A stretch of DNA of 55,579 nucleotides from Chloroflexota bacterium (GCA_005889475.1 VBGT01000029.1:4711-60289), one strand, 5' to 3'. Positions 3,376 through 51,508 are shown, numbered from the stretch's first letter. Program-made: numbers and translations. Notes: a model not told the origin generated them from the sequence alone.

Positions 3376-3401
3376 ACACGGACCGGGGCTACCCTGCCGC
3401 C

Positions 3402-4391
3402 ATGCCCCGGAACTCCCTCCCTCGGCCGACCGCGCTCGCCGCGGTCGGCATGGGGCTGGCGCTGGCCCTGGTCGGTTGCGGACCTGGCGGTTCGACCGGT
3501 AGTACCGCTCCCTCGGAATCCACAGCCTGCGCGACCGCGCCGACGCCGCCCGACGACCTCGCTGGCTGGGGTCCGCCGGCCACTGCGCCGACCGTGGTGC
3601 CCCTCCTGATCAACGACCCGGTCGTCTGCGGACCCAACCGAATCCTGTTCTCGGTCCTCGATCCGGCGGGCACGCCGATCGCGGCGCCCGACCGGACGAC
3701 GTCGGTCGCCTTCTACGACCTCGGCCGCGACCCATCGAAACCGATCACGAAGTTCGATGGCACCTTCGTCTGGGCGATCGAGAACGTTCGCGGCATCTAC
3801 GTCGGCTACGCGTCCTTCCCGGAGGCCGGCCGGTTCGGCGCCGAGTTCACGACCGCTGCCGCGGGGGGAGCGCCGGTGACCATCCGCCTCACCTTCGACG
3901 TCCAGCCCAGCTCCCCCGTCGTCAAGGTCGGCGACCACGCACCCGCCTCGAAGACGCCGACCCTCGCCGACGCCGGTGGCGACGCGAGCCATATCTCGAC
4001 GGACGCGAACCCGGATCCGGCCTTCTACAAGACGTCGGTCGACCAGGCGCTCGCGAAGCACGTGCCGTTCGTGGTGATCTTTGCGACGCCCAAGTTCTGC
4101 ACCACGGCGCAGTGCGGCCCGACCCTCGACCGGATCAAGCCCTTCGTCACGAAGTACCCGGGCGTCACCTTCATCAACGTCGAGCCGTACAGGCTGAAGC
4201 TCGTCGACGGCCTCCTGCAGGCCGACACCGACGCCAGCGGACAGCTCCAGCCGACGACCGTCACCGACGAGTGGCACCTCGTGCACGAGCCCAGCGTGTA
4301 CGTCGTCGACCGCGACGGGATCGTCACGGCGAACTTCGAGCTGATCTTCTCTGTTGCCGAGCTGAGCGCGGCGCTCGAGGCGGTCAAGTAG
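3402..4391 (+). CDS. Lipoprotein with a C-terminal thioredoxin-fold, Sco1/SenC-like domain (candidate copper chaperone)
   Basis: Signal peptide plus lipobox LALVGCG. C-terminal FVVIFATPKFCTTAQCGP (Cys pair, CxxxxC) is followed about 70 aa later by WHLVHEPSVYVVDRDG, which resembles the Sco CxxxC...H / YLvDpdG pattern. It is divergent from ctaA-ctaB. Confidence 0.55.
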   Translation: MPRNSLPRPTALAAVGMGLALALVGCGPGGSTGSTAPSESTACATAPTPPDDLAGWGPPATAPTVVPLLINDPVVCGPNRILFSVLDPAGTPIAAPDRTTSVAFYDLGRDPSKPITKFDGTFVWAIENVRGIYVGYASFPEAGRFGAEFTTAAAGGAPVTIRLTFDVQPSSPVVKVGDHAPASKTPTLADAGGDASHISTDANPDPAFYKTSVDQALAKHVPFVVIFATPKFCTTAQCGPTLDRIKPFVTKYPGVTFINVEPYRLKLVDGLLQADTDASGQLQPTTVTDEWHLVHEPSVYVVDRDGIVTANFELIFSVAELSAALEAVK

Positions 4392-6546: not shown

Positions 6547-6695
6547 CGTGGCCAACCTCGAGGTGGAAGTCTCGGCAAGAAAACCATCCACCCCGAACCG
6601 GGCACGCGCCATCGGCGACGTCCCGCAGCGAGGGCTGCGGGGAATCCCGCAAGAATCGCGCCCGATCGCTGTTCAGCGATCGGGCGCGTGAGTTC

Positions 6696-7640
6696 TCAGG
6701 CCGCGCTCCCGGCCTCCGGGGCCACGGGCGGCGTGTCGTCGCCCGGACCAGCGCGGCGGAAACGGCGCGAGACCACGAGCACGACGCCGGCAACGATCCC
6801 GAAGAAGAGGAGGATGGGCAGCCAGACGATCCCGAACCAGATGCCGGCCGTGGCCACACCCTGGAGGACGCTGACCAGGCTCGCGGACGCCTGCTCCGCC
6901 TCGGCGGCCGGGTCGAATCCCTGCTGCTCGGTGCGGACCGGGTTCGGCTTCAGGGAGAACGTCACCGTGAGGGTGGACATCGCGGCCTGTTCCACGAGGT
7001 GGCCCTTCTCCGCAGTCATCTCCTCGATCTGGCCCCGAACCTTGGTCAGCTCGGCCTGCACGGACAGCACGTCCTTGATCTCCGTCGCGCGATCCATGAT
7101 CGCCTGGAGGGCGCGCTCGGTCGCCTCGAGGTTCTTGATCCGAGCGCCGAGGTCGACGACCTGGCCCGTCACGTCCTCGGTGGACGATCGTTCGGTGAGC
7201 ACCTTGTCGGCGAGGCCGCGCAGGGCGGCGAGCGCCTCGTCCCAGCGAGCCGCCGGGATGCGGAAGGTGATGCTCGCCGAGGCGTTCTCGCCGTCCCCGG
7301 ACCGATCCGAGCCGCTGACGTAGCCGCCAAGCCCGTCGACCTTCTGGGTCGCCGCCGTCACGGCTGCATCGAGGCCGGTGACCTGCAGCGAGAGCGCGCC
7401 GGTTTTGATGATCAGCGGGTCCGCCGGCGCGGCGGGGGGCTGGTTGCCCGAGCCGTTCTGGTCGCCTTCGACGGGCCCTCGAGCGGCGTCCCCCGTGGCC
7501 ACTCCAGGTGCGGCGGTCGCCCCTGGCGCACCAACCCCCTGGAGTGCGGCTCCGGAGCAACCGATCGCAAACAATCCGATCAGGAAGATCGCCACGACGG
7601 CCGGCCCTCGCACGCCGAGCCGTCGAACAGTGGACAGCAT
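6696..7640 (-). CDS. DUF4349-like lipoprotein (paralog 2)
   Basis: Lipobox LFAIGCSG, then the same domain order as 5572-6546, with near-identical blocks (VVDLGARIKNLEATERALQAIMDRATEIKDVLSVQAELTKVRGQIEEM; GIWFGIVWLPILL). Confidence 0.7.
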   Translation of the reverse strand: MLSTVRRLGVRGPAVVAIFLIGLFAIGCSGAALQGVGAPGATAAPGVATGDAARGPVEGDQNGSGNQPPAAPADPLIIKTGALSLQVTGLDAAVTAATQKVDGLGGYVSGSDRSGDGENASASITFRIPAARWDEALAALRGLADKVLTERSSTEDVTGQVVDLGARIKNLEATERALQAIMDRATEIKDVLSVQAELTKVRGQIEEMTAEKGHLVEQAAMSTLTVTFSLKPNPVRTEQQGFDPAAEAEQASASLVSVLQGVATAGIWFGIVWLPILLFFGIVAGVVLVVSRRFRRAGPGDDTPPVAPEAGSAA

Positions 7641-7739
7641 CGCGGTGCTCCTCTCTCAGTCGGGCGCGAAGGCGCACCGACGGCGCCCCGACGGCGGCAC
7701 GATAGCAATGGTTCCCAAGCGCTCTGGGCGGAGCCCACG

Positions 7740-8912
7740 TCAGGGCCGGTATTCGACACCCTTCGACGACGGCGGGCCGGCACGCTTCGGGAGGGCGGTG
7801 CCGATCAACGGCGCATGGCGATCGAGCCCTCGGCGCCGGCATTCGGCAGCGAGTTCTTCGACGAGGCGAGCCGGCAGGGTCGGGTCGGCGAAGATGGCCG
7901 TCCCGACCTGGACCGCCACGGCACCGACGGCGAGGTAGTCGAGCACGTCGGCGAGCTCCGTCACGCCCCCGATCGCGATGACCGGGATGTCGACGACCTG
8001 GCTGACCTCGTACACGATCCGCAGCGCGACGGGCTTGATCGCCGGGCCGGACAGGCCGCCGTAGATGTTGCCGAGCAGGGGCCGTTCGCGCCCCGTCGCG
8101 ACCGCGATTCCGGACAGCGTGTTGATGGCGGTGAGGGCGTCCGCGCCCGCGTCCGCGATGGCTCGCGCGATCGGGCGCACGTCAGCGACGTTCGGCGAGA
8201 GCTTGACCAGGAGCGGCAGCTCGGTGGCCCGGCGGACGGCCGCGGTGACGGCGCCCGCGGCCTCGGCATCGATTGCGAACTGGATGCCGCCCTTGCCGAC
8301 GTTCGGGCAGCTGATGTTGAGCTCGATACCCGCGACGCCGGGCACGCCGTCGAGGCGGCGAGCGACCTCGGTGAAGTCGGCGATCGACTCGCCGGCGACG
8401 TTCACGATCACCGGCACGCGCCAGCGCGACCACGTCGAGGCGTACTTGTCGATGACCGCGTCGACGCCCGGGTTCTGGAGCCCGATCGAGTTGAGCATCC
8501 CGCCCGGCGTCTCGGTGACGCGCGGCGTCGGGTTGCCGACGCGCGGCCGGAGCGTCGTGCCCTTGCAGCAGATGGCGCCGAGCCGCTGCACATCGACCAC
8601 GTCGCCGTATTCGACGCCGTAGCCGAACGTGCCCGAGGCGACGAGGATTGGGTTTGCCAGCACCAGGCCACGCCCGAGGTCGACCGACAGGTCGACCGCC
8701 TGATCCGTGGCCGGCCGGTTGCCGTCGCGCCCGGCGGTCGGTGGCGACACCTGCCGCTGCGTGGCTCCATTTCCGCCCTGCGTCGGTGCGACCGGCGCGG
8801 GCGGCAGGACCCGGCGCGTCGCCGGCAGGATCGCGGACTTGATGCGCCGCACCGTCGGGCGGCGCTTCGCGGGCGCGGCTCGCGAGGTCACGACTCGGCG
8901 CCTTGCCTTCAC
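7740..8912 (-). CDS. pyrD: Dihydroorotate dehydrogenase, class 1B catalytic subunit, with an apparent basic N-terminal extension
   Basis: LANPILVASGTFGYG, GMLNSIGLQNPG, IELNISCPNV, LVKLSPNV, GGLSGPAIKP, VIAIGGV. The proposed GTG at 8912 forms a GTGA overlap with the pyrK stop. The true start could lie further downstream. Confidence 0.85.
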   Translation of the reverse strand: MKARRRVVTSRAAPAKRRPTVRRIKSAILPATRRVLPPAPVAPTQGGNGATQRQVSPPTAGRDGNRPATDQAVDLSVDLGRGLVLANPILVASGTFGYGVEYGDVVDVQRLGAICCKGTTLRPRVGNPTPRVTETPGGMLNSIGLQNPGVDAVIDKYASTWSRWRVPVIVNVAGESIADFTEVARRLDGVPGVAGIELNISCPNVGKGGIQFAIDAEAAGAVTAAVRRATELPLLVKLSPNVADVRPIARAIADAGADALTAINTLSGIAVATGRERPLLGNIYGGLSGPAIKPVALRIVYEVSQVVDIPVIAIGGVTELADVLDYLAVGAVAVQVGTAIFADPTLPARLVEELAAECRRRGLDRHAPLIGTALPKRAGPPSSKGVEYRP

Positions 8913-40281: not shown

Positions 40282-41222
40282 CCGCGGTCGGGTCCGGGGG
40301 CGCGTCCGGCATCGTCGTCGCCAATGCGCCGGTCAGCTATGGCGCCTTCGAGCTGACCGTCGGCATCGATCCCAATGTTCCGGACGGGCTCCAGGTCCTC
40401 GACGAGGTGGCCGGGGCCGGCTATGCGGGCATCGACCTCGGGCCCGTCGGCTATCTCGGCCGCGGCGCCGAGCTAGGAGAGCGTCTCGCCGGCCGCAATC
40501 TCGGCCTTGCCGGGGGGTACCTGGAGCTGCCGTACGCCGATTCGGAGGCGCTCCATCAGGCCATGCCGGCGCTCGATGAGCTGCTCTACGCGTTCGACGC
40601 CGCCGGGCCTAACCGGGACGCCCCGCCACCCCGGCCGACGCTTGCCGATGCCGGCAGCGAGTCCCGCCGGGCGCGCCCCGGCCGGTCCGGCGCCGACCAC
40701 GGCCTGGGCCTGGATGCGGATGGCTGGCAGCGATTCGGCGTGGGTCTGGCCGAGGTGGTCGGACGCTGCCGCGACCGAGGCTATGAGCCCACGTTCCACC
40801 ACGAGACCGGGACGTACGTCGAGGCACCCTGGGAGGTCGAGCGGGTCCTGGAGGTTTCGGACATCGGGCTCTGCCTCGACGCCGGCCACTTCCTGCTCGC
40901 CGGCGGCGACCCCGTGGCGGCGATCGGAACGTGGGCCCCGCGCATCAACCATTTCCACCTGAAGGACGCCCGCCGATCGGTGATGGCCGGGATCGTCGCC
41001 GACGGAGTGCCTGCCACCGGGATCTGGGAGCGCGAGGCTTTCCCCCCGCTGGGCCAGGGCGACCAGGACGTCGACGGCATCATTGCCGCGCTGCGACGGA
41101 TCAGCTATCAGGGCTGGCTCGTCGTGGAGCAGGACACGCTGCCCCGCACGAAGGCGCGTTTCGACCAGGCGGCTGCGGACCAGCGGGCCAACCGCAGCTA
41201 CCTCGCGGAGCGCGGATTGTGA
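40278..41222 (+). CDS. Inosose dehydratase-like sugar phosphate isomerase/epimerase (IolE-like TIM barrel)
   Basis: The ATG at 40278 overlaps the upstream stop (ATGA). FHHETGTYVE, GLCLDAGHFLLAGGDP, INHFHLKDAR, GWLVVEQD. Pattern as in IolE. It contains a Pro/Arg-rich insert of roughly 40 aa. Confidence 0.6.
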   Translation: MTAVGSGGASGIVVANAPVSYGAFELTVGIDPNVPDGLQVLDEVAGAGYAGIDLGPVGYLGRGAELGERLAGRNLGLAGGYLELPYADSEALHQAMPALDELLYAFDAAGPNRDAPPPRPTLADAGSESRRARPGRSGADHGLGLDADGWQRFGVGLAEVVGRCRDRGYEPTFHHETGTYVEAPWEVERVLEVSDIGLCLDAGHFLLAGGDPVAAIGTWAPRINHFHLKDARRSVMAGIVADGVPATGIWEREAFPPLGQGDQDVDGIIAALRRISYQGWLVVEQDTLPRTKARFDQAAADQRANRSYLAERGL

Positions 41223-42136
41223 GCGACGCACTGTTTCGCCTCGGGCTGATCGGCGCCGGTCGCATGGGCAGGACCCATCTCCGCGCCCTCGAGGGCTCGA
41301 CGTCGGTCGCGGTGACCGCGGTCGTCGAGCCCGTCGCCACGACCCGCGACGCGATCGCGGGAATGGGCATGGCCGTCTTCGAGGACGTATCCATCACCGC
41401 CCCGAGCGATCGCCACGTCGAGATCGTCACGCAGGTCGCGGCCGCGGGCCTGCCGATCCTGTGCGAGAAGCCCTGCGGGCGCTCGACCGCCGAGATCGTC
41501 GTCGCCGAGCACGCGGTGGAGCGCGACGGGATTCCCTTCCAGGTGGCGTACTGGCGCCGCTACGTGCCGGCCCTGCAGGAGCTCCGCCAGCGCATCGAGG
41601 CGGGCGAGCTGGGCGAGGTCCACCTGCTCGCCAGCTTCCAGTGGGATGAGCATCCGCCCAGCCCGGCGTTCCGTGCCCACAGCGGCGGGATCTTCATCGA
41701 CATGGGCGTGCACGAGTTCGACCAGATCCGGTGGCTCAGCGGGCAGGAGTTCGGTGATCTCGATGCAGTCTCGTCACCGGTCGGCGAAGCCGGCGACATC
41801 GGGGATGACGTGGACAGCGCACAGGCGCTCGGGACCCTTTCGGGCGGGACGAGCGCGTTCGTCTCGCTGGGACGCTTCTTTCCGGGCGGCGACATGGCGC
41901 GGATCGAGGTCTTCGGGACCGCGGATGCGGTCCGCTGCGACTTCCTCGACCCGAAGGACGGCGATCGAGCCCAGCTCGAGGCGCTGGTTCGGCAAGCCGA
42001 GGGCTTCGCGGCCTTCGCTCGCGGCGGCGCCCGCACGGGTGCCTCGATCCGGGATGCGGCTGCCGCCCTCGCGGCCGCCGAGCGAGCCGCGTCGGCGATC
42101 GCGCTCGTCCCCGCTGCCGCTGGCCCGCGCTCGTGA
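41219..42136 (+). CDS. Gfo/Idh/MocA-family oxidoreductase (short N-terminal domain)
   Basis: The GTG at 41219 overlaps the upstream stop (GTGA). LGLIGAGRMGRTH, PILCEKP, FIDMGVHEFD. The segment between the second strand and the EKP motif is shorter than in its two neighbours. Confidence 0.65.
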   Translation: MSDALFRLGLIGAGRMGRTHLRALEGSTSVAVTAVVEPVATTRDAIAGMGMAVFEDVSITAPSDRHVEIVTQVAAAGLPILCEKPCGRSTAEIVVAEHAVERDGIPFQVAYWRRYVPALQELRQRIEAGELGEVHLLASFQWDEHPPSPAFRAHSGGIFIDMGVHEFDQIRWLSGQEFGDLDAVSSPVGEAGDIGDDVDSAQALGTLSGGTSAFVSLGRFFPGGDMARIEVFGTADAVRCDFLDPKDGDRAQLEALVRQAEGFAAFARGGARTGASIRDAAAALAAAERAASAIALVPAAAGPRS

Positions 42137-43284
42137 CGGCGACTCCTGAGCTGCGCATCGGGATCGTCGGCTACGGGACGATGGGCCGCGCGCACAGCTA
42201 CGGCTATCGGGTCGCTCCGAACGTGGCTCCGCTGCCGATGCGACCCATCGTCAAGCTCCTCTCCGGCCGCGACGAGGCGGCCGTTGCCGCGGCGGCTGCG
42301 AGCTATGGCGCGGAGGCCTGGACCACTAACTGGCGCGATCTCGTCGAGCGCGACGACATCGACGTGGTCGACATCTGCACACCGCCGGGCACCCACGCGG
42401 AGATCGCCGAGGCGGCGGCCGGCGCGGGCAAGGCAGTCCTGTCCGAGAAACCGCTGGGAACGTCCTACGCCCAGGCGCACGCCGCGTGGGCCGCGGTCTC
42501 AGGAGCCGGCGTGCGCAACGCGATCGGGTTCAACTACCGGCGCCTGCCCGCCGTCGCGTTGATGCGCCGGATGATCGCCGACGGCGTCGTGGGCGATGTC
42601 AGGCTGTGGCGCGGGACCTGGCTCTCCGACGAGTTCACCGACCCCGCGACGCCATTCGACTGGCGCTTCGACCGCGCGATGGGCGGAACCACCATCGCCG
42701 ACCTCGGGAGCCACATGATCGACATGGCGCTCTGGATGGTCGGCCCGGTCGCCGAGGTGTCAGCCCAGTCGGAGACGTTCATCCGGGCGCGGCCGAGCCC
42801 GACCGGCGACCGGCGGGTCACCATCGACGATGCATCGTCGGCGCTGCTTCGTTTCGAAGGTGGCGCACGCGGGACGATCGAGATGGCTCGGCTCGCGGTC
42901 CGCCGGCCGTGCGACTTCACCATCGAGGTCAACGGGGCCAAGGGCACGCTCGTCTTCGACTATCCGCGCCTGAACGAGCTGCTGTACGGCGACGCCGGCG
43001 ACGATCCCGGTTTGTACGGCATGCGCCGGATCCGGGCCGAGCACCCGGGTCACCCCTATGCGGAGCTCGGCTGGCCGATCGGCCAGGGCATCGGCTACGG
43101 CGAGACGTTCGTGAACCAGGCAGTGGATCTCGTGCGTGCCTGGCCGAGCGGAGCCTGGACGCCGAGCTTCGCCGACGGCCTCGCCGTCCAGGCGGTGTGC
43201 GATGCCATGGAGCTGTCCGCGGCGCAGCGGCGCTGGGTCGGCATCCCGGAGATTACCGAGACCGTTAGCAGGAGGCGCCCCTGA
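42133..43284 (+). CDS. Gfo/Idh/MocA-family oxidoreductase
   Basis: 383 aa. The GTG start overlaps the upstream stop. IGIVGYGTMGRAH, AVLSEKPLG, IADLGSHMIDMA. Confidence 0.7.
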   Translation: MTATPELRIGIVGYGTMGRAHSYGYRVAPNVAPLPMRPIVKLLSGRDEAAVAAAAASYGAEAWTTNWRDLVERDDIDVVDICTPPGTHAEIAEAAAGAGKAVLSEKPLGTSYAQAHAAWAAVSGAGVRNAIGFNYRRLPAVALMRRMIADGVVGDVRLWRGTWLSDEFTDPATPFDWRFDRAMGGTTIADLGSHMIDMALWMVGPVAEVSAQSETFIRARPSPTGDRRVTIDDASSALLRFEGGARGTIEMARLAVRRPCDFTIEVNGAKGTLVFDYPRLNELLYGDAGDDPGLYGMRRIRAEHPGHPYAELGWPIGQGIGYGETFVNQAVDLVRAWPSGAWTPSFADGLAVQAVCDAMELSAAQRRWVGIPEITETVSRRRP

Positions 43285-43424
43285 CCCACCGCTCTCGCTC
43301 CACCGAGACCAGCCCGTTGAGGAGTGATTGATAGAACTTGCGATATTGATCCTGGTCCGAGACCACAAAGAAAATGGGTCAGGACGAAGCCCTCGGTGGG
43401 GGCGGGAAATTCGCCGGGGTTCAT
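43265..43424 (-). pseudogene. 5' fragment of a VOC/glyoxalase-like gene, frameshifted and truncated
   Basis: GGAGG lies 6 nt before the ATG at 43424. Frame 1 gives MNPGEFPAPTEGFVLTHF. After the T-run cattttcttt, the +1 frame reads FFVVSDQDQYRKFYQSLLNGLVSVERE...*. Joined, this matches the h-h-H-h-x-h-x-V-x-D-x-D-x-x-x-x-FY N-terminal module of VOC proteins. The reading runs into the 3' end of the convergent oxidoreductase gene. Confidence 0.35.
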
Positions 43425-43450
43425 CTTGGCCTCCGAGGAATCGAACCAAT

Positions 43451-43807
43451 CTAATGGCGCAGCACGCTACGGGTCCGGCAGGCGCCGATGAAGTCGAGCC
43501 ACAAGCCGCCATCCGAGAGTTCGACGCGAGGTCGTCGGAACCATCCCCAGCCACGCATGACGATCCGCGCTCCGGCGGCCTCGAGAACGCTGACAAGGTC
43601 TCGTTGAACATAGGCCTCGATGCCGGCGGGGGCACGCAGCGGCTGGAACTCCTCGGCGATCGGCACTTCCGATCCGGTCCAACGGAGGTGGAGGTCGCCC
43701 ACGGAAACGTTGCGTCCACAGCACCGCGACGCGAAATAGTCAAGCAGAAGCCGGCGACCCTTTGACCGGGCGAATAGCTCGTCGCGCGCCTCGTTGGACC
43801 AGATCAT
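43451..43807 (-). CDS. Small hypothetical protein with an SRCCG motif (possibly the CC/Se-motif family)
   Basis: From the internal ATG at 43807: MIWSNEARDELFARSKGRRLLLDYFASRCCGRNVSVGDLHL...GIEAYVQRDL...IVMRGWGWFRRPRVEL. The track ORF extends to 44002. Lower-GC region. Confidence 0.45.
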   Translation of the reverse strand: MIWSNEARDELFARSKGRRLLLDYFASRCCGRNVSVGDLHLRWTGSEVPIAEEFQPLRAPAGIEAYVQRDLVSVLEAAGARIVMRGWGWFRRPRVELSDGGLWLDFIGACRTRSVLRH

Positions 43808-44021
43808 CGCGGCGTCTGCCCGGCTCCACCCTGTTGCCACCTCGGTGCTGGAGAGAACTGGAGCCGTCGTCATGGCACGGATCGTACGTGCGTCGCTCAT
43901 AAACAGCCACGTAAGACGCGATCCCCGTGTTCGAGCAACCGGCGACCTCCAGCACGGGCCTGATACCGACCGCGTGAGTGCGCCGCTGGCTCCCGCCCGC
44001 ACCAGGTGCGAAACTGGGACG

Positions 44022-44370
44022 GTAAGGGCAGAGCTTGTCGCGTTCGGCGAGATTCAGATCGAGGGCGAGCGTTATGCCCGCGACGTGGTCATCGAGCGGG
44101 CGTGTGAGGCCCCGCCGAAAGGGCCCTTCAAAGGCGCTCCGTGACCGGTTCGGGCACACGCCGCTGTAGGCCGCGGAGGCCATCCCGTGGGGCGGCCATC
44201 GGCTCATCGTCGGGACGGGCGCCGATGGCAGGCTGCCGATCGCCGCAGACGTCCACACCGAGGCCGAACGACGCGGAGTTGGGATGGTCGCCCTGCCAAC
44301 AGCGGAGGCTTGCCGTCTGCTCGCCGAAATGAAGGCTGAGGACGTCTACGCGGTCATCCACACCTGTTAG
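44022..44370 (+). pseudogene. Mth938-like (DUF498) gene disrupted by a frameshift, an in-frame TAG and loss of its start codon
   Basis: Frame A reads ...AFGEIQIEGERYARDVVIER up to about 44099. Frame A+1 then reads GRVRPRRKGPSKALRDRFGHTPL-TAG(44167)-AAEAIPWGGHRLIVGTGADGRLPIAADVHTEAERRGVGMVALPTAEACRLLAEMKAEDVYAVIHTC-TAG(44368). The joined reading follows the Mth938 pattern FG.i.i.G..Y..DvvI...G.v..R.K..S....G.sH.l.......liiGTG..G......PT.eA...hvTC. Confidence 0.7.
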
Positions 44371-44702
44371 CTCCGCGTCGGCATCACACCCCTCATCGAA
44401 TATCGGCCCAGCAACTTTCTGCCATTCCGACGGGCATGTTGCGTGCGAAAGCTGGGACAGACGGCGACGGGCTGGCATAGACAGCAGGTGTACCGTGACA
44501 ACGCAGGGCCCCCGCTCCGCACGTCGACGGCGATCCCTTATGGGGATTGGCTAGATCGCGCCACCGGGGGCCTCTGCGGTGCCGGTCGTAGCCTTCGTCG
44601 ACGGGGTGTGCGGCCGACATGACGATGGCGGAGCTGGGGAGCTGGCGTCGATCCGGCTGATAAACTCGGCGGCGCGCCGAGGTCGTCTCTAGCGACTCCC
44701 GA

Positions 44703-44778
44703 GCGGGAGTAACTCAGCTGGCAGAGTGTCTGCTTCCCAAGCAGAATGTCGCGGGTTCGAATCCCGTCTCCCGCTCCA
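44703..44778 (+). tRNA. tRNA-Gly (anticodon CCC), CCA encoded
   Basis: Folded by hand. Acceptor GCGGGAG/CTCCCGC; D stem ACTC/GAGT; anticodon stem TCTGC/GCAGA with loop TT-CCC-AA; variable loop ATGTC; T arm GCGGG-TTCGAAT-CCCGT; discriminator T; then CCA. Confidence 0.9.
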
Positions 44779-45140
44779 ATTCCACGCAATTGATCGTGGC
44801 CACAGCGTCTGCTTCGGCAAGTTAGTTGCTGTGAGGCCCCGCATGGTCGTCTCCACAGCAAGTGCTTCACATGCCAGGGCAGGTCGCCGCGTTCGTCTCA
44901 GTGTCTGCCTCTTGCGTGTCGCCCGTTCGCACCGGGCCGTGATCGAAAGAATCAGGTCAAGGGGGACGAGCCTGAAGGCCCGGGTGGTTCGCAAGTCGCA
45001 AGCCGCGCGCGAGACTAGAGCACCGCTCCGCCTCGCAGAGACGCCAGCGCCTCGTCTTGCACCCTGCGCCTGGAGCGGGAGATAAGGGTTATCGCTCGCG
45101 CCTATGATCAGCGCCCCAGGAGTCCGCCAGGAGAGAGACC

Positions 45141-45512
45141 ATGTTGGACGACGACACGCTCAAGGACATGTACTCGAGACGCGGTGTCCCAACCGACTGG
45201 CAGGAGCTGACGCCGGACACCATGGCGCCCGCCTTCAAACTCTGGTACCGCGCGCTTCCCAGTCCGAAATCGGACTTCGTCGACGGATCTGAGTACGCCG
45301 AGTGGCTGATCCACGACCCGGTCGCCGCTCTTCGAGATTCTGGAATCATCTCCAGCGCGGAAGAGGATGCGGAGGAACCGCATATCTCGACGATGGTCGT
45401 CAACCACGAGAAGACGCTGAATCGACTCATCATGTTTGCGATGGTCGTGGTCTCGACGAATCCGAAGACCGTCGGGATCACGATCGTCAAGGAAGGGGCC
45501 CCCGAAGATTGA
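45141..45512 (+). CDS. Hypothetical acidic protein (islet orphan)
   Basis: 123 aa. GGAGAGAG Shine-Dalgarno 4 nt upstream of the ATG. A/T-ending codons are more frequent than in the flanking genes. I recognise no family. Confidence 0.5.
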   Translation: MLDDDTLKDMYSRRGVPTDWQELTPDTMAPAFKLWYRALPSPKSDFVDGSEYAEWLIHDPVAALRDSGIISSAEEDAEEPHISTMVVNHEKTLNRLIMFAMVVVSTNPKTVGITIVKEGAPED

Positions 45513-45593
45513 CGGTGCGGCCGTCGCCGATCCGCGAATCGGTCAGGACTGCTGCCTGCTGACCTGATTCCTGACCTCACGACCGCTCAGGCC

Positions 45594-48500
45594 ATGATCT
45601 GCCCCAGCTGCGGCTCCGAGAACCCATCGGACTTCCGATTCTGCCCGTCATGCGGGCTTGCCCTGGCTCCATCGGCGACCAACCGCCCCGAAGCGCCGCT
45701 CGAGGCCCAATCGTCCGCACTCTCGTCTGAGCCGGTCGGCGCCATCGCAGAACGCGCCCGGCCGCTTGCCGAGCGGCGGCTCGTATCGGTCCTCTTCCTC
45801 GACCTCGAAGGCTTCACCACCCTCTCCGAATCGCTCGACCCGGAGGACGTCCGCGAGATCCAGTCCCGCTATTTCGAGTCTGCGCGAGCGACCGTTGCGC
45901 ACTACGGCGGTTCGCTCGAGAAGTTCATCGGCGACGCCGTCATGGCGGTCTGGGGAACCCCGATCGCCCACGAGGACGATGGCGAGCGCGCGGTGCGTAC
46001 CGCACTCGAGGTCGTATCGGATGTCGAGACCATGTTTACCTCGCCCAGCAGCGGTCACCTCATGGCCCGCGGCGCCGTCACCACCGGAGAGGCCGCCGTC
46101 ACGCTCGACGCGGAGGGCCAGGGCATGGTGACGGGCGACCTCGTGAACACCGCCTCGCGGCTGCAGGGTGAGGCGACACCAGGCACGGTGCTGGTCGACG
46201 ATGCCACTCGTCGCGTGGTGGGGGAGGAGGTCGTTTTCGAGCCCGCCGGGGAGCTGATCCTGAAGGGCAAAGCCGCCCCCGTCTCCTCGTGGCGCGCGGT
46301 CGCCTTGGCTCCGCACGTAAGCAGCGAGTCGCGAACTGGCCATCGCGGACCGTTCGTGGGGCGCGATGCGGAGCTGCGCGCACTGAAGGAGCTGGGGGAA
46401 TCGGTCGCCAGCGAGCGCCGGATGAAGGTGGTCTCGCTGATCGGCATCGCCGGAATTGGCAAGAGCCGGCTCGCATGGGAGCTCGAGCATGCCCCGAGCG
46501 AACAGACGCCGCGAGCGGCGTGGTACGCAGGGCGCGCGCCCGGGTACGGCGAGGGAATCGCGTTCGCGCCCTTGGCCGAGATGGTGCGTCGCAGCGCTGG
46601 GATCGCGGAGGGCGATCCGGCCGAGGTCCAGCGTCGCGCTCTTGCCGAGACGCTTGGTCGCCTCATTCCCGATGATGCCGAGCGCGAGTGGATGCAGCCC
46701 CGCCTGCTTGCGCTTTTTCAGCCGGGAGGGGCCGTCGAGAGTCAGCGCGAGGAGCTTTTTGCCGCCTGGCGGCGGTTCTTCGAGGCCGATGCAGAGGCGG
46801 CCCCGATCAGCCTCGTCTTTGAGGACCTCCAATGGGCTGACCCGGGCCTCCTCGACTTCATCGACTACCTCGCTGATTGGTCCCGTCATCATCCGATCCT
46901 GGTCATGACTCTCGGCCGGCCGGAGCTGCTTGATGCGCGCCCGACCTGGGGCGCGCGCCTGCCGCATTTCACGGCCATGCATCTCGATCGGCTTGGGGAC
47001 GATGCGATCGACGCGCTGCTCGCAAGCCTGGCTCCCGGGCTCACCCCGAAGATCGCCATCCTAATTCGACAGCGAGCCGACGGCGTTCCGCTCTACGCGG
47101 TCGAGATGGCACGCATGCTCACCGAGCGGGGCAGTGGCTCGGTCGTAGGCGACTCTGCGACGAAAGCCCCCGGCACAGCCGCGGGGAGAGCCATCGAGAT
47201 TCCGGAATCGCTGCACGCCCTCCTGGCCGCACGGATCGACGCCCTCCCCGCCCCGGAACGGTCCCTGCTGTTCACGGCCGCCGTCCTCGGCCGCCGATTC
47301 CGACCTGATGCGCTCGCGGCGCTCGCTGGATTGGATCGGGTGACCCTCAGCTCGGCCATACGGGCGCTCGTGCGTCGCGAATTCCTGGCGGTCGACGACG
47401 AACCGCGCTCCCCTGGGCGAGGACAGCTGAGCTTCGTCCAGGAGCTGGTCCGCGAGGTCGCCTATCACACCCTCTCGCGACGAGAGCGGCGCACGCTCCA
47501 CCTGGCGGTGATCGAGTACCTCGAGTCGATTGGTGAGACGGACCTCGTTGAGCCGATTGCCGAGCACTTGCTCGCGGCGCATGCCGCTGCCGGCCCCGAT
47601 CAGGGGCAGGACCAGGCGATCGCCGATCGCGCGCGCGACGCGCTTCGTCAGGCCGCGACACGGGCGCAGGCGCTGCATGCCCCGCAACGTGCCCTCGCGC
47701 ACCTCGAGCAGGCCCTGGGCCTCACCCAGGATCCTCCGGAGCGGGCAATTTTGGCCGAGGCAGCCGGCCTCGCGGCGCGCGCCGCAGCGCGATTTCCGAC
47801 CGCCGAGCGGTACCTCCGAATGGCGACCGAGCTGCGAGAGGCCCAGGGCGATGCCACCGCGGCGGGGGCCCGAAATCGAGCGCAGTTGGCGAGCGTCCTG
47901 CTGCAGGCGCAGCGCAGCACGACGGCGCTAGCCGAGCTGGAGTCAGCGTGGAACGCGGCCGCAGCCGGCTCCGATCGGAACGCCATAGCGCTGGAACTGC
48001 CGGCTGAGCTCGCCAGGGCTCACCTGCTTCGGGGCGATACAGAGCGCGCGATCGAATGGGCGGAGCGGGCAATCGCTGCCGCGGGCTCGGATGCCGCCGA
48101 TGGGCCGGGCGCCGCGCAGGCGGTGGCGATCGACGCGCGGGTCACCCTGGGAACGGCGCACGCAAGTCAAGGCGATCTCGAGGAAGGTCTCGCGCAGCTG
48201 CGCCAGGCGATAAGCGATGCCGAGTCCGGCGGCCACGGCTCGGTCGAGCTCCGTGCCCTCAACAACCTGGCATGGACCATGGTCAGCGACGATCCGCGCG
48301 CCACAAGCGAAACGGCGCGGCGCGGGCTCGAGCTGGCAGAGCGCCTAGGAATTCGCGAGATGGCACTCCAGCTGCTCGACATTGCCACCATCGTGGCGAT
48401 TGACACCGGGGATTGGGACTGGGCTGTATTGGCCCTCGAGGAGGGATCTGAAGGCGAGCTGCCGACCACCCACCGCCTGGACTTCGCAGCGACGCGCACG

Positions 48501-49070
48501 ATCCTGAACGCGTTGCGCGGCGTCCCTGATCCGACAGGTCCCATCGACAGCCAGGGTGCGCTCGAGCCCGACCTGGATCCGGAGGCACTCGGCTGGGTCG
48601 ATTATGCGCGCGCGCTGGTGGCGATGGTTGCCGGCGACCTGCCTCGCGCTCTCGAATTGGCCCGCGTCGCGGCTGGCAAGACGCGGGGGTTCGAGCGATC
48701 GGCAGTCCTCGCCGTGGCGGGACGCGTCGCGGCATGGAGCGGCAGGGTCGACGCCGCGTCGGAGGTACTCGCCGAGCTTGAGGCAGAGCAGACCTGGGGC
48801 CGCGCCGCGGAGGCCTCGCGTCACACGCTCCGTGCCGCCGTCGCAGCTGCCAAGACGTTGGGCAAAGGCCCGGGCCTCAAGGACGCCGACCGCGAATGGA
48901 CCGATGCGCTCACTGGCTGGCTCCAGCTCGACCTTCCACTGCGCCTGGGTCTGTGCCACCTAGATCGCTGGGTGCTCGCCGGCAGCGAGCAGGACCACGC
49001 GGCCGCCGTCGAGATCTTCGAGAGGCTGGGGGCCACGCCCCTGACGACGCTCGACCCCAGACCGCGCTAA
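45594..49070 (+). CDS. Zinc-ribbon / class III adenylate-guanylate cyclase / AAA (STAND-type) ATPase / TPR-like repeat protein
   Basis: 1158 aa. N-terminal CPSCGSENPSDFRFCPSCG. The cyclase domain has SVLFLDLEGFT, GGSLEKFIGDAVMAVWG and TGDLVNTASRLQ. FVGRDAELRAL is followed by Walker A IGIAGIGKSRL and Walker B LVFEDLQWAD. The C-terminal ~550 aa are Ala/Leu-rich helical repeats. No terminal HTH is seen. Confidence 0.85.
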   Translation: MICPSCGSENPSDFRFCPSCGLALAPSATNRPEAPLEAQSSALSSEPVGAIAERARPLAERRLVSVLFLDLEGFTTLSESLDPEDVREIQSRYFESARATVAHYGGSLEKFIGDAVMAVWGTPIAHEDDGERAVRTALEVVSDVETMFTSPSSGHLMARGAVTTGEAAVTLDAEGQGMVTGDLVNTASRLQGEATPGTVLVDDATRRVVGEEVVFEPAGELILKGKAAPVSSWRAVALAPHVSSESRTGHRGPFVGRDAELRALKELGESVASERRMKVVSLIGIAGIGKSRLAWELEHAPSEQTPRAAWYAGRAPGYGEGIAFAPLAEMVRRSAGIAEGDPAEVQRRALAETLGRLIPDDAEREWMQPRLLALFQPGGAVESQREELFAAWRRFFEADAEAAPISLVFEDLQWADPGLLDFIDYLADWSRHHPILVMTLGRPELLDARPTWGARLPHFTAMHLDRLGDDAIDALLASLAPGLTPKIAILIRQRADGVPLYAVEMARMLTERGSGSVVGDSATKAPGTAAGRAIEIPESLHALLAARIDALPAPERSLLFTAAVLGRRFRPDALAALAGLDRVTLSSAIRALVRREFLAVDDEPRSPGRGQLSFVQELVREVAYHTLSRRERRTLHLAVIEYLESIGETDLVEPIAEHLLAAHAAAGPDQGQDQAIADRARDALRQAATRAQALHAPQRALAHLEQALGLTQDPPERAILAEAAGLAARAAARFPTAERYLRMATELREAQGDATAAGARNRAQLASVLLQAQRSTTALAELESAWNAAAAGSDRNAIALELPAELARAHLLRGDTERAIEWAERAIAAAGSDAADGPGAAQAVAIDARVTLGTAHASQGDLEEGLAQLRQAISDAESGGHGSVELRALNNLAWTMVSDDPRATSETARRGLELAERLGIREMALQLLDIATIVAIDTGDWDWAVLALEEGSEGELPTTHRLDFAATRTILNALRGVPDPTGPIDSQGALEPDLDPEALGWVDYARALVAMVAGDLPRALELARVAAGKTRGFERSAVLAVAGRVAAWSGRVDAASEVLAELEAEQTWGRAAEASRHTLRAAVAAAKTLGKGPGLKDADREWTDALTGWLQLDLPLRLGLCHLDRWVLAGSEQDHAAAVEIFERLGATPLTTLDPRPR

Positions 49071-49127
49071 GGGCCCCGGTCGCCCGCAGCCCTGAGGGCC
49101 CGCCTGGAGCTTCGCGAGCGTTGTAGG

Positions 49128-49610
49128 TCACTTAAAATCACGACCGAAGTCGTTCGTGACGATGGGGGACTGGTAGTCGATGTTGACGTGCGAGACCCCG
49201 ATCGCCCGGACAGTGCCGTCACCTAACTCGAAGACGACGACCCTGTAGCCAAGCCCCCCGGCGCTCACCACGCTGGACGCGATGCTGTGAAGCGTTGCTC
49301 GCACGACCGGCGCATGCGACGGATCACGGCGGTCGAAGCCGTCACGGGCCGCGCTGAGCCAAACTGCGAAGCTCGCGTCGCAGTCCCACGGCCGCCCGAC
49401 CGCGTAGGCGTCAGGATCGGAAGTGAGTATCGGGCCGGGCGGGCAGGTTTCGAGTTCGCCCACCTTCCAGCCGTCATAGATCGCCGGTCCAAAGAGGTTC
49501 GCCGGGAATCCGAGGCGCACGGCGGCGAACGCCACGAAGACGAGGATCGCGACGATGAGCGCGGACTTGAGCGGGCTCGGACCGCGCTCAAGGCGCCGAT
49601 ATCTCGTCAT
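49128..49610 (-). CDS. Membrane-anchored hypothetical protein (islet orphan)
   Basis: 160 aa. N-terminal anchor ALIVAILVFVAFAAV, then a soluble domain with two Cys residues (ETCPPGP...WDCDAS). Confidence 0.5.
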   Translation of the reverse strand: MTRYRRLERGPSPLKSALIVAILVFVAFAAVRLGFPANLFGPAIYDGWKVGELETCPPGPILTSDPDAYAVGRPWDCDASFAVWLSAARDGFDRRDPSHAPVVRATLHSIASSVVSAGGLGYRVVVFELGDGTVRAIGVSHVNIDYQSPIVTNDFGRDFK

Positions 49611-49831
49611 CGCGTAGGGGTCATGCTGGTCGCCACCGCCCCGGGGTTCAGTGTGCGGAGGGTATCGGTGAATCGTGGATCGGCAATCCGTGATTTCGCC
49701 TAATGCTGGAAGCGCGCACTCGGCAGCGCCTCGCTTGCGACGCGCGAAGCAGCGGAGCGAAAGGAGCTATCGACCCGCCGGATTCTCGGTGCTAGCGTCC
49801 ATTAGCAGGTTGCTACTGGGGGGTCGCTGCC

Positions 49832-50287
49832 GTGCGTCGGGTCATCACCACTCTTGCGCTGGCGCTGTCTCTGCTCGGATGCGGCTCGTCAGCGCCATCG
49901 GGCTCCGCAGCGCCATCAGTCTCCGCAGCGCCAGCGGGCGAACCGATTGAGTTGCGTACGGGTGTCGATCCGGATTTAGGTCCGGAGCGATCCGATGGCC
50001 TAAACGCGTGCCGCACGTTCTGGAACGTGGGTCTGCTCATTGTCGATGCGGACTTCGGGACAGCCGCTGAGGGCAACTACGGCATCAAGCCGCTGATCTG
50101 GCCCCTCGGCTATACAGCTCGTCGACTGGCCGGGGGCGAGGTCGTGGTGCTGAACCGGACCGGCGATGTCGTGGCGACCACGGGGCACAAATACCAGTTT
50201 TGGACGGTCGCTTGGGGCGGTGGCGGTCCGGCCCACACCGGCTTCTGCGTGAACGAGTGGAGCCCCGACGCCACACCCGCTCTCTAG
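49832..50287 (+). CDS. Hypothetical lipoprotein (islet orphan)
   Basis: 151 aa. GTG start, lipobox LSLLGCGSS. An 18-nt tandem duplication (49903-49938) encodes SAAPSVSAAPAG. Confidence 0.55.
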   Translation: MRRVITTLALALSLLGCGSSAPSGSAAPSVSAAPAGEPIELRTGVDPDLGPERSDGLNACRTFWNVGLLIVDADFGTAAEGNYGIKPLIWPLGYTARRLAGGEVVVLNRTGDVVATTGHKYQFWTVAWGGGGPAHTGFCVNEWSPDATPAL

Positions 50288-50408
50288 CGCTGGAGACCCG
50301 CACTGACGCCGCGCAGCTCCGCGCCTGGCACCGCGACTAACGACTGCATTTCAATTAGTCGCTGCGCCACGCTCGTTCCAATAGAGCGAGCGTCCATTCC
50401 GACACATC

Positions 50409-50453
50409 GCTTCCCGCGCAGAATGTCGCGGGTGCGAATCCCGTCTCCCGCTC
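50409..50453 (+). repeat. Direct repeat of the 3' half of tRNA-Gly(CCC) (att-like relic, not a tRNA)
   Basis: gcttcccGCgcagaatgtcgcgggtGcgaatcccgtctcccgctc matches 44732-44776 at 42 of 45 positions in the same orientation. The upstream sequence has no acceptor or D-arm counterpart. Confidence 0.8.
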
Positions 50454-50566
50454 GACCCCACCGGCTCAGCTTGTGGCGGCGCTAGATCGCCGCCGGCCAT
50501 TCTCGATCCGCAAGATCTGCGCCTCCTCATCCCGACTCGGCTCAACAAACAGCGCAAGATTGAGGC

Positions 50567-51508
50567 GTGCGGATCGGACTCTTCACGGACGGTCTGAAAG
50601 ACCTCTCGAGGCGGGAAGCATTGGCCTGGGCAGCCGACCACGACATCACGGACGTCGAGATGAGCGTCGGGACCTGGGGAGCTCGGACCCACCTCAATCT
50701 CGAGGCGCTGCTGAGTGAGCCGCGGGCGATGGACGACCTGCGGCGCGATCTCGACGAGACCAGCATTCGCTTCAGCGCGGTCAACGCGGCCGGGAATCCG
50801 CTTCACCCCGACCCGTCGGCGCGGGTCAGGGCGCAGGCGGCCGTACGGGGTGCGATCGAGCTCGCAGCGCGACTCGGGATCGAACGGGTGGTCACGATGG
50901 CGGGCAGCCCCGGCGGGCGGACCGGCGGGCCAATCGGCGTATTCGGCCTGTGGTCTGTCGCCAATGATGACGAACCGATCTGGGCCTGGCAGATGGAGAA
51001 CGAAGTCGGGCCGTACTGGCGCGGCATGTCCGACTGGATGGCGATGGCCGCGGCGGACGTGCGAGTCTGCCTCGAGCTGCATCCGGGTGTCTCGGTCTGG
51101 ACGCTCGAGACGTATCGCGCATTGCGCGCCTATTGCGGTGACAACATCGGGGTCAACCTGGATCCCAGCCATTTCTGGTGGCAGGGCGCGGACCCCGTCC
51201 GCGTCATCGAAGCACTGGGCCCGGTCGTGGGCTGGTGCCATGGCAAGGACACCACCCTATATCCGGACCGGATCTCGCTGCACGGCGTGCTCGACCATCG
51301 ATATCCCGTCGACGCCGCCATCGCGCCATGGCACTTCTCGGCCATTGGTGACGGCCATGACGCCGCCACCTGGGCGCGCCTCATCAAGGCGCTTCAGGCC
51401 GCCGGACACGACTCGGTGATCTCGATCGAGCACGAGGACCCGTCGCTGACCCCCGACGAATGCATCAGCCGTTCTGTCGCCACCCTCAAGCAGGCGCTCG
51501 AGATGTGA
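50567..51508 (+). CDS. Sugar phosphate isomerase/epimerase (xylose-isomerase-like TIM barrel), paralog of 38071-39015
   Basis: 313 aa. SAVNAAGNPLHPDP, LELHPGVSVWT, VNLDPSHFWWQ, HGKD, SIEHED. Confidence 0.75.
   Translation: MRIGLFTDGLKDLSRREALAWAADHDITDVEMSVGTWGARTHLNLEALLSEPRAMDDLRRDLDETSIRFSAVNAAGNPLHPDPSARVRAQAAVRGAIELAARLGIERVVTMAGSPGGRTGGPIGVFGLWSVANDDEPIWAWQMENEVGPYWRGMSDWMAMAAADVRVCLELHPGVSVWTLETYRALRAYCGDNIGVNLDPSHFWWQGADPVRVIEALGPVVGWCHGKDTTLYPDRISLHGVLDHRYPVDAAIAPWHFSAIGDGHDAATWARLIKALQAAGHDSVISIEHEDPSLTPDECISRSVATLKQALEM

Follow-up and report, generated by a model that had tools for sequence, protein, structure and literature searches.

The tDNA islands (islands seated in tRNA genes) collected by Islander and TIGER are recognised by an intact tRNA gene on one side and, on the other, a displaced piece of that gene in direct orientation, and Islander requires a tyrosine integrase gene inside the island (PMC4383910). 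Cis-mobilizable elements (CIMEs) of Streptococcus thermophilus and its relatives are decay products of ICEs (integrative and conjugative elements) or IMEs (integrative and mobilizable elements), and are joined by accretion (PMC5704250). In Dehalococcoides, fifteen islands at ssrA had no integration module and were proposed to be CIMEs (McMurdie et al. 2011; PMC3146451). Here we describe an islet at positions 44703-50453 of a 55,579-nucleotide (nt) stretch of Chloroflexota DNA (GCA_005889475.1 VBGT01000029.1:4711-60289; hereafter the window), in which the 3' half of tRNA-Gly(CCC) is repeated downstream of a group of genes that includes no integrase. We consider it likely that the repeat is an attR attachment site left by integration of the tyrosine-integrase type with crossover in the anticodon loop, and that the islet is a mosaic and probably fixed.

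Compared with Islander/TIGER islands, the locus shows the same arrangement of tRNA gene and fragment, and related integrases adjoin the identical tRNA in other genomes; the differences are that this islet has no integrase and consists mostly of a native gene pair instead of imported cargo. It resembles CIMEs in that integration and transfer genes are absent, the attL and attR cores are both present, and other elements lie in tandem at one tRNA gene (PMC5704250). Unlike them, its attR is changed in the presumed overlap, which makes mobilisation doubtful, and its host is an uncultured soil Chloroflexota. The ssrA islands come from the same phylum and also lie in tandem past the gene of a small stable RNA; every island closes with a direct repeat of that gene's 3' end, and a conserved motif stands just upstream of the repeats (PMC3146451). 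Their target is the T-loop of transfer-messenger RNA (tmRNA), with a 20-bp repeat and the serine integrase DsiB (PMC3146451), whereas here it is the anticodon loop of tRNA-Gly, with a 45-nt repeat, tyrosine integrases and islets on both sides of the gene. The locus is thus a decayed or CIME-like tDNA islet, which is a known kind, and the scar itself is textbook.

One intact tRNA-Gly(CCC) was called in the window by ARAGORN and Rfam. A repeat search showed a second, directly oriented copy of its final 45 nt before the CCA (44732-44776) at 50409-50453, identical at 42 of 45 positions, as the preliminary description of this sequence had stated. The repeated block begins with GCTTCCC, the end of the anticodon stem and the loop, and finishes with CCCGCTC. 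These limits agree with the anticodon-loop sublocation, which is a published class of tyrosine-integrase att sites (10.1101/2020.11.02.365908). The repeat is not a motif dispersed through the window: a 36-nt core with up to three mismatches occurred at these two sites only and had 0 matches in 100 shuffles, and nhmmer found no third copy in the window. Two of the three differences are adjacent and lie in the anticodon loop, where TTCCCAA of the tRNA became TTCCCGC in the copy, and the remaining one is a T-to-G change in the T-loop (GGTTCGAAT in the tRNA, GGTGCGAAT in the copy). The T-loop mismatch and the missing 5' half had been noticed before and were borne out: the sequence that precedes the copy bears no relation to the 5' half of the tRNA, and neither ARAGORN nor Rfam called a tRNA there. 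Since assemblies L082 and L212 carry the copy base for base (L numbers denote other contigs and assemblies), the three mismatches are genuine and not assembly errors. L214 has one additional substitution, which suggests that the half copy is drifting by neutral decay. In the proposed mechanism, incoming DNA would presumably have brought the 3' half now at 44732-44776, so that the intact tRNA would be a hybrid (attL), and the original 3' half would have been displaced to become the attR at 50409-50453.

A Joint Genome Institute (JGI) metagenome scan was made with the full 76-nt tRNA, and at least 119 contigs carried the identical gene. According to Pfam, XerC/D-like Phage_integrase genes with SAM-like N-terminal domains begin 43-263 nt past the tRNA in L098, L117, L159 and L162, and tblastn revealed integrase homologues 3' of the tRNA also in L145, L111, L161, L139, L167 and L170. 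In L121, only the first ~66 integrase codons remain at the tRNA. In a sister contig, L164, a GFO gene with 91% nucleotide identity to window 42794-43258 precedes the tRNA, and ~113 nt past the tRNA comes a stretch that matches the L098 integrase over codons ~11-53 (E 7e-5 at 44% identity), beyond which the sequence is unrelated. This match indicates that a truncated integrase survives at the equivalent locus of a sister lineage.

Half copies of the tRNA recur in the same way. Among the 64 contigs with at least 900 nt 3' of the tRNA, 12 hold 15 further 3'-half copies, located 0.76-8.2 kb 3' of the tRNA; there are two additional decayed copies, one of them truncated, the farther lying 12.4 kb away. 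All 15 start in the anticodon loop and end at the tRNA 3' end, as in the window. Past their most distal copy, L104, L089, L158 and L136 show the hairpin flank found directly 3' of the tRNA in L112, L133, L103 and L087, and the latter four serve as empty-site equivalents for the former loci. The window half copy is followed by an analogous hairpin (50475-50494). Contig L190 matches window 43293-44783 at 89-92% nucleotide identity, and its homology stops 5 nt past the tRNA end. Taken together, the integrases at the tRNA, the matching limits of the copies, the flanks and the L164 remnant make site-specific integration the best explanation, and they support the attL/attR footprint that had been proposed from the window alone. 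A phage as vector was considered and left without evidence: the scan of viral contigs with the tRNA 3' half returned only a phage tRNA array, which is irrelevant, and scans with the group-1 arm plus core (see below), the CCC-specific half and the L098 integrase gave no match. As a separate observation, 28 of the 119 loci end within 150 nt past the tRNA and 22 of the 119 begin within 150 nt before it; these counts would fit assembly breaks being common at a locus polymorphic on both sides.

Table 1. Features of the islet and its surroundings in the window (positions from its first nucleotide).
Feature	Position	Strand	Basis
Intact tRNA-Gly(CCC), putative attL	44703-44778	+	ARAGORN; Rfam RF00005, 68.2 bits
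Displaced 3' half of tRNA-Gly(CCC) (putative attR core), decaying	50409-50453	+	Repeat search, copy comparisons
Non-coding leader beside the tRNA (P' side)	44779-45072	.	No homology to module relatives left of ~45073
Two-gene module	45073-49072	+	Conserved upstream region, 123-aa gene (45141-45512), 1158-aa gene (45594-49070)
Membrane-anchored 160-aa protein	49128-49610	-	ORF; called in three assemblies
Lipoprotein cassette body	49766-50408	+	Homology to the stand-alone cassette of L174
Cassette upstream region, 69 nt	49766-49834	+	Conserved with L174
151-aa lipoprotein gene	49832-50287	+	ORF
P arm with two hairpins	50333-50362, 50369-50393	+	Folding z = -4.05
Presumed original flank 3' of the tRNA	50454-50566	+	Hairpin layout likeness with other contigs
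5'-side islet remnant	43259-44702	.	Absent from L164, present in L190

The anticodon loop bears on whether the islet can still move. All 15 other half copies keep the loop TTCCCAA, apart from the loss of one T in L200, and the window copy alone reads TTCCCGC. Tyrosine recombinases such as lambda Int, XerCD and Cre require identity in the overlap for strand exchange. If the loop is the overlap, two changes within its presumed 7 nt would impair recombination between attL and attR, and the islet has probably lost the ability to excise, as far as can be judged from sequence. We also considered a live CIME-like cassette, that is, an islet without its own integrase and with working attL and attR, moved by an integrase of the L098 family encoded elsewhere or on an incoming element. 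Such elements are established for CIMEs (PMC5704250) and proposed for the Dehalococcoides ssrA islands (PMC3146451), and integrase-less islets of 0.76-5 kb with conserved arms recur at this tRNA in 12 contigs, some in tandem (L089, L177). Moreover, in L104 and L194 an integrase lies immediately upstream of the tRNA and an integrase-less islet downstream. Against this, the window attR has the two changes in the presumed overlap besides the one in the T-loop, the other copies keep the loop, the extra substitution in L214 points to neutral decay, no integrase is found in 55.6 kb, and eight assemblies of this population showed neither an islet-less variant (empty site) nor an alternative junction. 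We therefore regard a live cassette as improbable. Given the missing integrase, the single set of junctions and the continued drift, a fixed islet is the likelier state of the population.

The arrangement itself does not depend on one assembly. All of it, including both junctions, is present in the second assembly L082 at 99.8% identity; the left junction was also seen in L081 and L157, and the right one in L212 and L214. Altogether two contigs span the islet whole and six do so in part. As a minor difference among these assemblies, 36 nt at 41392, within the GFO-family gene 41183-42136, are missing in the window and present in L081 and L082.

Four open reading frames (ORFs) lie between the repeat copies (Table 1). 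In agreement with the earlier count of four genes without integrase, excisionase or transposase, no integrase domain or remnant was found in any frame of the islet or of the whole window, no ORF of the islet matched Pfam Phage_integrase, and no excisionase or transposase was detected in the islet. Conjugation or mobilisation genes were not seen at the window locus or at the related loci examined either. The region 44779-45140, which had been called non-coding, is indeed so, although the region conserved upstream of the 123-aa (amino acid) gene takes up its last ~68 nt. The first ~90 nt of the leader are weakly similar to the tRNA-proximal flank of L164 (local alignment 26 versus 19.7 +/- 2.4 for shuffled sequence, p~0.03), and the two share a hairpin, GTTGCTGTG...CACAGCAAG. 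The membrane-anchored 160-aa protein belongs to a small family with 48 representatives at E<=1e-3, the best of them 71% identical, and had no match in Pfam, NCBIfam or PADLOC.

The largest part of the islet was found to be native. The two-gene module at 45073-49072 makes up ~70% of the islet, and its large gene encodes an 1158-aa protein that, according to Pfam, combines Zn-ribbon, class III nucleotide cyclase, STAND-type ATPase (AAA_16) and TPR domains; the 123-aa protein encoded upstream had no family match. Orthologues of the 1158-aa protein show graded identity, at 93, 92, 89, 89, 86, 85 and 83% aa. In all five contexts recovered from relatives (L204, L207, L209, L210, L211), the order is DUF6855, the 123-aa gene, the cyclase/STAND gene and then a gene on the opposite strand, which is HD, followed by CAP and WYL, in L204, L207, L209 and L211, whose contigs extend far enough; at the HD position the L210 contig shows only a truncated uncharacterised 161-aa ORF. 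Beside the module, none of these five contexts contains tRNA-Gly, a half copy or an att-like sequence. At the nucleotide level the module is 80-93.6% identical to the five relatives, and the homology begins at ~45073-45094, in the upstream region that belongs to the pair, and stops at 49062-49072, where the large gene has its stop codon. As these limits are sharp and no remnants of DUF6855, HD, CAP or WYL occur in the window, the pair appears to have moved as a unit, and would have come to the islet from another chromosomal neighbourhood. The samples with the 93% orthologue and those with window-type contigs do not overlap, which favours, without proving, that the relatives hold the orthologue and not a second copy within one genome.

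The 123-aa gene lies directly upstream of the cyclase/STAND/TPR gene in 6 of 6 lineages, and conserved order of this kind suggests that the two are likely a functional pair. NCBIfam did not bear out a possible resemblance of the 123-aa protein to NHLP-type leader peptides. A defence role for the cargo was rejected, because NCBIfam and PADLOC gave only partial sub-threshold matches (a weak PycC cyclase, and a TOMM kinase/cyclase that scored far under the cutoff). Genes for nucleotide cyclases, several of them including STAND/TPR parts, occur beside the tRNA or in its islets in ~10 contigs versus a rough expectation of ~3: window 45594-49070, L085 246-3713, L092, L100/L086, L089 ~6574-7965, L121, L143 3250-3350, L194 5040-5993 and L175. 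This excess may simply reflect a large gene family.

Composition had been taken to set the islet apart, and this holds only weakly. The G+C content is 0.676 in the islet and 0.703 in the window, but the right flank is at 0.671; G+C at third codon positions (GC3) is lower as stated, at 0.73-0.80 in the islet versus 0.83-0.89 for flanking genes. The tetranucleotide correlation does fall to a minimum of 0.945 at 45-49 kb (mean 0.98, sd 0.011). As a sign of foreign origin, however, composition was rejected. The pair's GC3 is 0.78-0.80 against 0.83-0.89 in the window flanks, and at the native locus in relatives, for example L204, it is 0.80-0.81 versus 0.89-0.93 around it; the same gap at the native locus indicates that the low GC3 is intrinsic to the gene pair. 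The preliminary description of a decayed, immobilised element with retained cargo was thus right, plausibly, about immobilisation, given the overlap changes, and only partly right about the cargo, most of which is a module that five relatives keep in another neighbourhood.

The native cargo raises the possibility that no site-specific integration took place, and that a rearrangement or segmental duplication copied part of the tRNA when the pair moved beside it. The absence of mobility genes and of alien composition would fit such an event, as would the sequence at 45071-45082 (TGGAGCGGGAGA), whose 12 nt perfectly match the tRNA 3' end TCTCCCGCTCCA in inverted orientation and which overlaps the right edge of the leader, exactly at the left junction of the moved module. 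Several observations speak against it: the half copy is bounded, like 15 independent ones elsewhere, by the anticodon loop and the tRNA 3' end, the arm beside it is common to L174, L177 and L180, integrases use this tRNA, and a remnant of one persists in the sister lineage. We consider this explanation very unlikely. As for the 12-nt inverted copy, it sits exactly where the native gene-pair homology begins, 8 of its 12 nt are native to the module (L210), and it could be junction microhomology or chance.

At the right end of the islet lies a cassette with a counterpart elsewhere. In L174, only 0.76 kb separate the identical tRNA from a perfect 3'-half copy, and this interval holds one gene, for a lipoprotein with 37% aa identity to the 151-aa protein of the window (E 1e-8). 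The 69-nt upstream region is conserved between the two (score 40 versus 16.8 +/- 2.2 for shuffled sequence, 0 of 500 reaching it), as is the 41-nt arm between the lipoprotein gene and the half copy, and L177 and L180 carry part of this window/L174-type arm. Because upstream region, gene and arm all match L174, window 49766-50453 belongs to a small family of lipoprotein cassettes that end in an arm and a tRNA half. The lipoprotein family has 16 detectable homologues, and its mature part is hypervariable among strains 99% identical elsewhere. For example, L157 11700-11908 holds a divergent allele of the mature part in a strain 99.2% identical across the preceding 11.8 kb, and assemblies L081 and L157 break or diverge at 49880-49901. 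The AlphaFold model of the lipoprotein is all-beta with a predicted local distance difference test (pLDDT) score of 79, and had no match in the PDB at E<=0.001.

From tRNA to attR, the 5.63-kb mosaic runs as non-coding leader, moved native pair, small membrane-protein gene, and lipoprotein cassette with its own arm abutting attR. Such an order could have arisen by tandem accretion, the lipoprotein cassette having entered first and then an element with the pair and the 160-aa gene, whose internal att copy was later deleted; the alternative is the illegitimate insertion of a chromosomal segment into a single old islet. The published route to tandems of this kind is accretion with later decay (PMC5704250), the distal copies are progressively decayed in the tandem arrays of L089, L143, L154 and L177, and the L174-type homology begins only at 49766, so the left part is separable. 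Yet no internal half-tRNA trace was found between 49073 and 49765, and five relatives carry the pair in the chromosome, where nothing att-like adjoins it. We hold accretion to be a possible history, though a doubtful one.

To the right of the half copy, the hairpin GGCGGCG-CTAGAT-CGCCGCC at 50475-50494 is followed by a T-containing tail, and the TIM-barrel gene of a sugar operon begins at 50567. The layout of this flank, ~12 nt, GCTCAG, the hairpin and a TTCTCG-like tail, is found elsewhere directly 3' of the tRNA or of the distal 3'-half copy. A pattern scan gave no canonical terminator call for the hairpin at 50454-50566, and terminator and promoter scans of the window were uninformative in this high-GC DNA. 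The protein encoded at 50567-51508 has its best identity, 83%, to Candidatus Limnocylindrales / Chloroflexota metagenome-assembled genomes (MAGs), so we place the window in an uncultured soil member of the Limnocylindrales-like Chloroflexota; a look-up for exact matches to the window's TIM-barrel protein gave no record. Synteny with relatives L001-L009 and L083 begins at 50565/50566.

Several points weigh against site-specific integration at this locus. An empty site, in which the tRNA would run directly into 50454 onward, was not found through right-flank relatives in the genome collection, by protein search and inspection of contexts: the closest ones (83-88% aa) have no tRNA upstream and are syntenic only from 50566 rightward, and L190 and L164, which match the left side of the window, diverge at or near the tRNA end, neither running into 50454 onward. 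The remnant of a recombinase is also missing, as tblastn with four same-locus integrases found nothing in the window at E<=0.01, and even at a lax E<=50 gave only noise in 43285-50566. Likeness between the two arms of the islet was not above chance, and the motif TTAGT(T/C)GC is a tentative lead. Finally, most of the cargo is native and not alien, and composition is uninformative.

The same tRNA carries many other integrase-less units. An arm of ~75 nt upstream of the loop boundary (group-1) occurs in six copies in L089 (three), L136, L154 and L158, and also in L173, L200 and one copy of L177; its motif GCGACAC(T/C)CTAAC recurs in flanks just past the tRNA. The cargo is unrelated from islet to islet and includes VapBC and PIN toxins, TetR and SRPBCC proteins, methyltransferases, an FAD oxidoreductase, a LysM protein, an SCO4226-cyclase fusion, and Fic-like and RHS-like proteins, with no recombinase among the cargo of these other integrase-less islets. 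Rfam recognised no RNA family in the window half copy, its arm or the group-1 units apart from true tRNAs. Tandem integrase-less arrays were found in L089 4911-9582 (three islets), L177 5140-13429 (two), L143 2183-3450 and L154 13-12562. Their distal half copies are progressively decayed, the one at L143 ~3395-3450 being cut after ~25 nt and the one at L154 12516-12562 having an internal deletion. In L104 (3256-4191) and L194 (2009-2968), an integrase gene on the minus strand lies immediately upstream of the tRNA and diverges from it, with an integrase-less islet and a half copy downstream; the islet carries a PIN toxin in L104 and a Fic-like protein in L194.

This geometry of L104 and L194 appears to resemble an integron platform. 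The likeness to integron cassettes is one of outline only: recombinase-less units of one to few genes with a conserved end site are stacked at a fixed site, from which the integrase gene diverges in L104 and L194. In contrast to integrons, there is no attC-type imperfect palindrome and no IntI, the site is a tRNA half with a 40-75-nt arm, the integrases are XerC/D-like, the units bring upstream regions of their own, and a functional tRNA gene serves as the fixed site. The window islet was accordingly rejected as an integron member, since it has no attC and no IntI-type integrase, and the XerC/D-like integrases too are absent from the window. More broadly, tRNA-Gly(CCC) in uncultured soil Chloroflexota/Actinomycetota might be the fixed site of a two-sided, integron-like gene-capture system, in which integrase-less units of one to few genes, each with a conserved 40-75-nt arm and a tRNA half at its end, would be moved, stacked and swapped in trans by XerC/D-like integrases, which some genomes have right next to the tRNA, and chromosomal genes, such as the pair in the window, would be drawn in; we put this forward as speculation with a low probability.

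Some consequences reach beyond the window. One tRNA gene is documented here as a two-sided hot spot of gene turnover in poorly known Limnocylindrales-like Chloroflexota, and in many metagenome contigs that carry the identical tRNA, small integrase-less units with conserved arms are about as common as integrase-bearing insertions, and form arrays. If the units move in trans, they would constitute a cassette system, a sort for which Streptococcus CIMEs and Dehalococcoides ssrA islands are so far the main described examples. As the relocated pair shows, native genes can come to lie in att-bounded islets, so the equation of island with foreign DNA and calls based on composition can mislead.

The other side of the tRNA gene bears traces of similar events. 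The 1.4 kb upstream of the tRNA are, by comparison with two related contigs, a remnant of a second islet, on the 5' side, which the preliminary description had overlooked. This block (G+C 0.654) includes a 183-aa ORF at 43451-44002 (minus strand), the end of a truncated VOC-like gene and, at ~44030-44370, a DUF498/Mth938-like pseudogene interrupted by a frameshift and an in-frame stop, for which the reconstructed frame matched Pfam at E 7.6e-7. In L164, which has no such block, the GFO stop codon and the tRNA are 75 nt apart, and the match to the window extends no further than 43258. In L190 (702-2083), the block is bounded on one side by the full tRNA and on the other by a 5'-half tRNA copy (702-735), which corresponds to tRNA nt 1-32 and diverges at the anticodon loop. 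The window no longer has this displaced 5' half, and its 5'-side junction falls within the last ~8 GFO codons. Mirror-image 5'-half copies (nt 1 to ~40) were found in direct orientation 0.5-7 kb upstream of the tRNA in L141, L142, L149, L093, L095, L196, L185 and L190, and L141 and L142 also have, beside the tRNA, an integrase gene that is transcribed away from it and shares 48-57% identity with the downstream type. With 5'-half islets upstream and 3'-half islets downstream, the tRNA is used from both sides. Within the upstream block, a stretch of ~75-120 nt at window 44481-44604, which had no Rfam match, is 93-94% conserved in L190 1801-1919 and, inverted, in L158 (reoriented) 182-256, a contig otherwise unrelated to the window.

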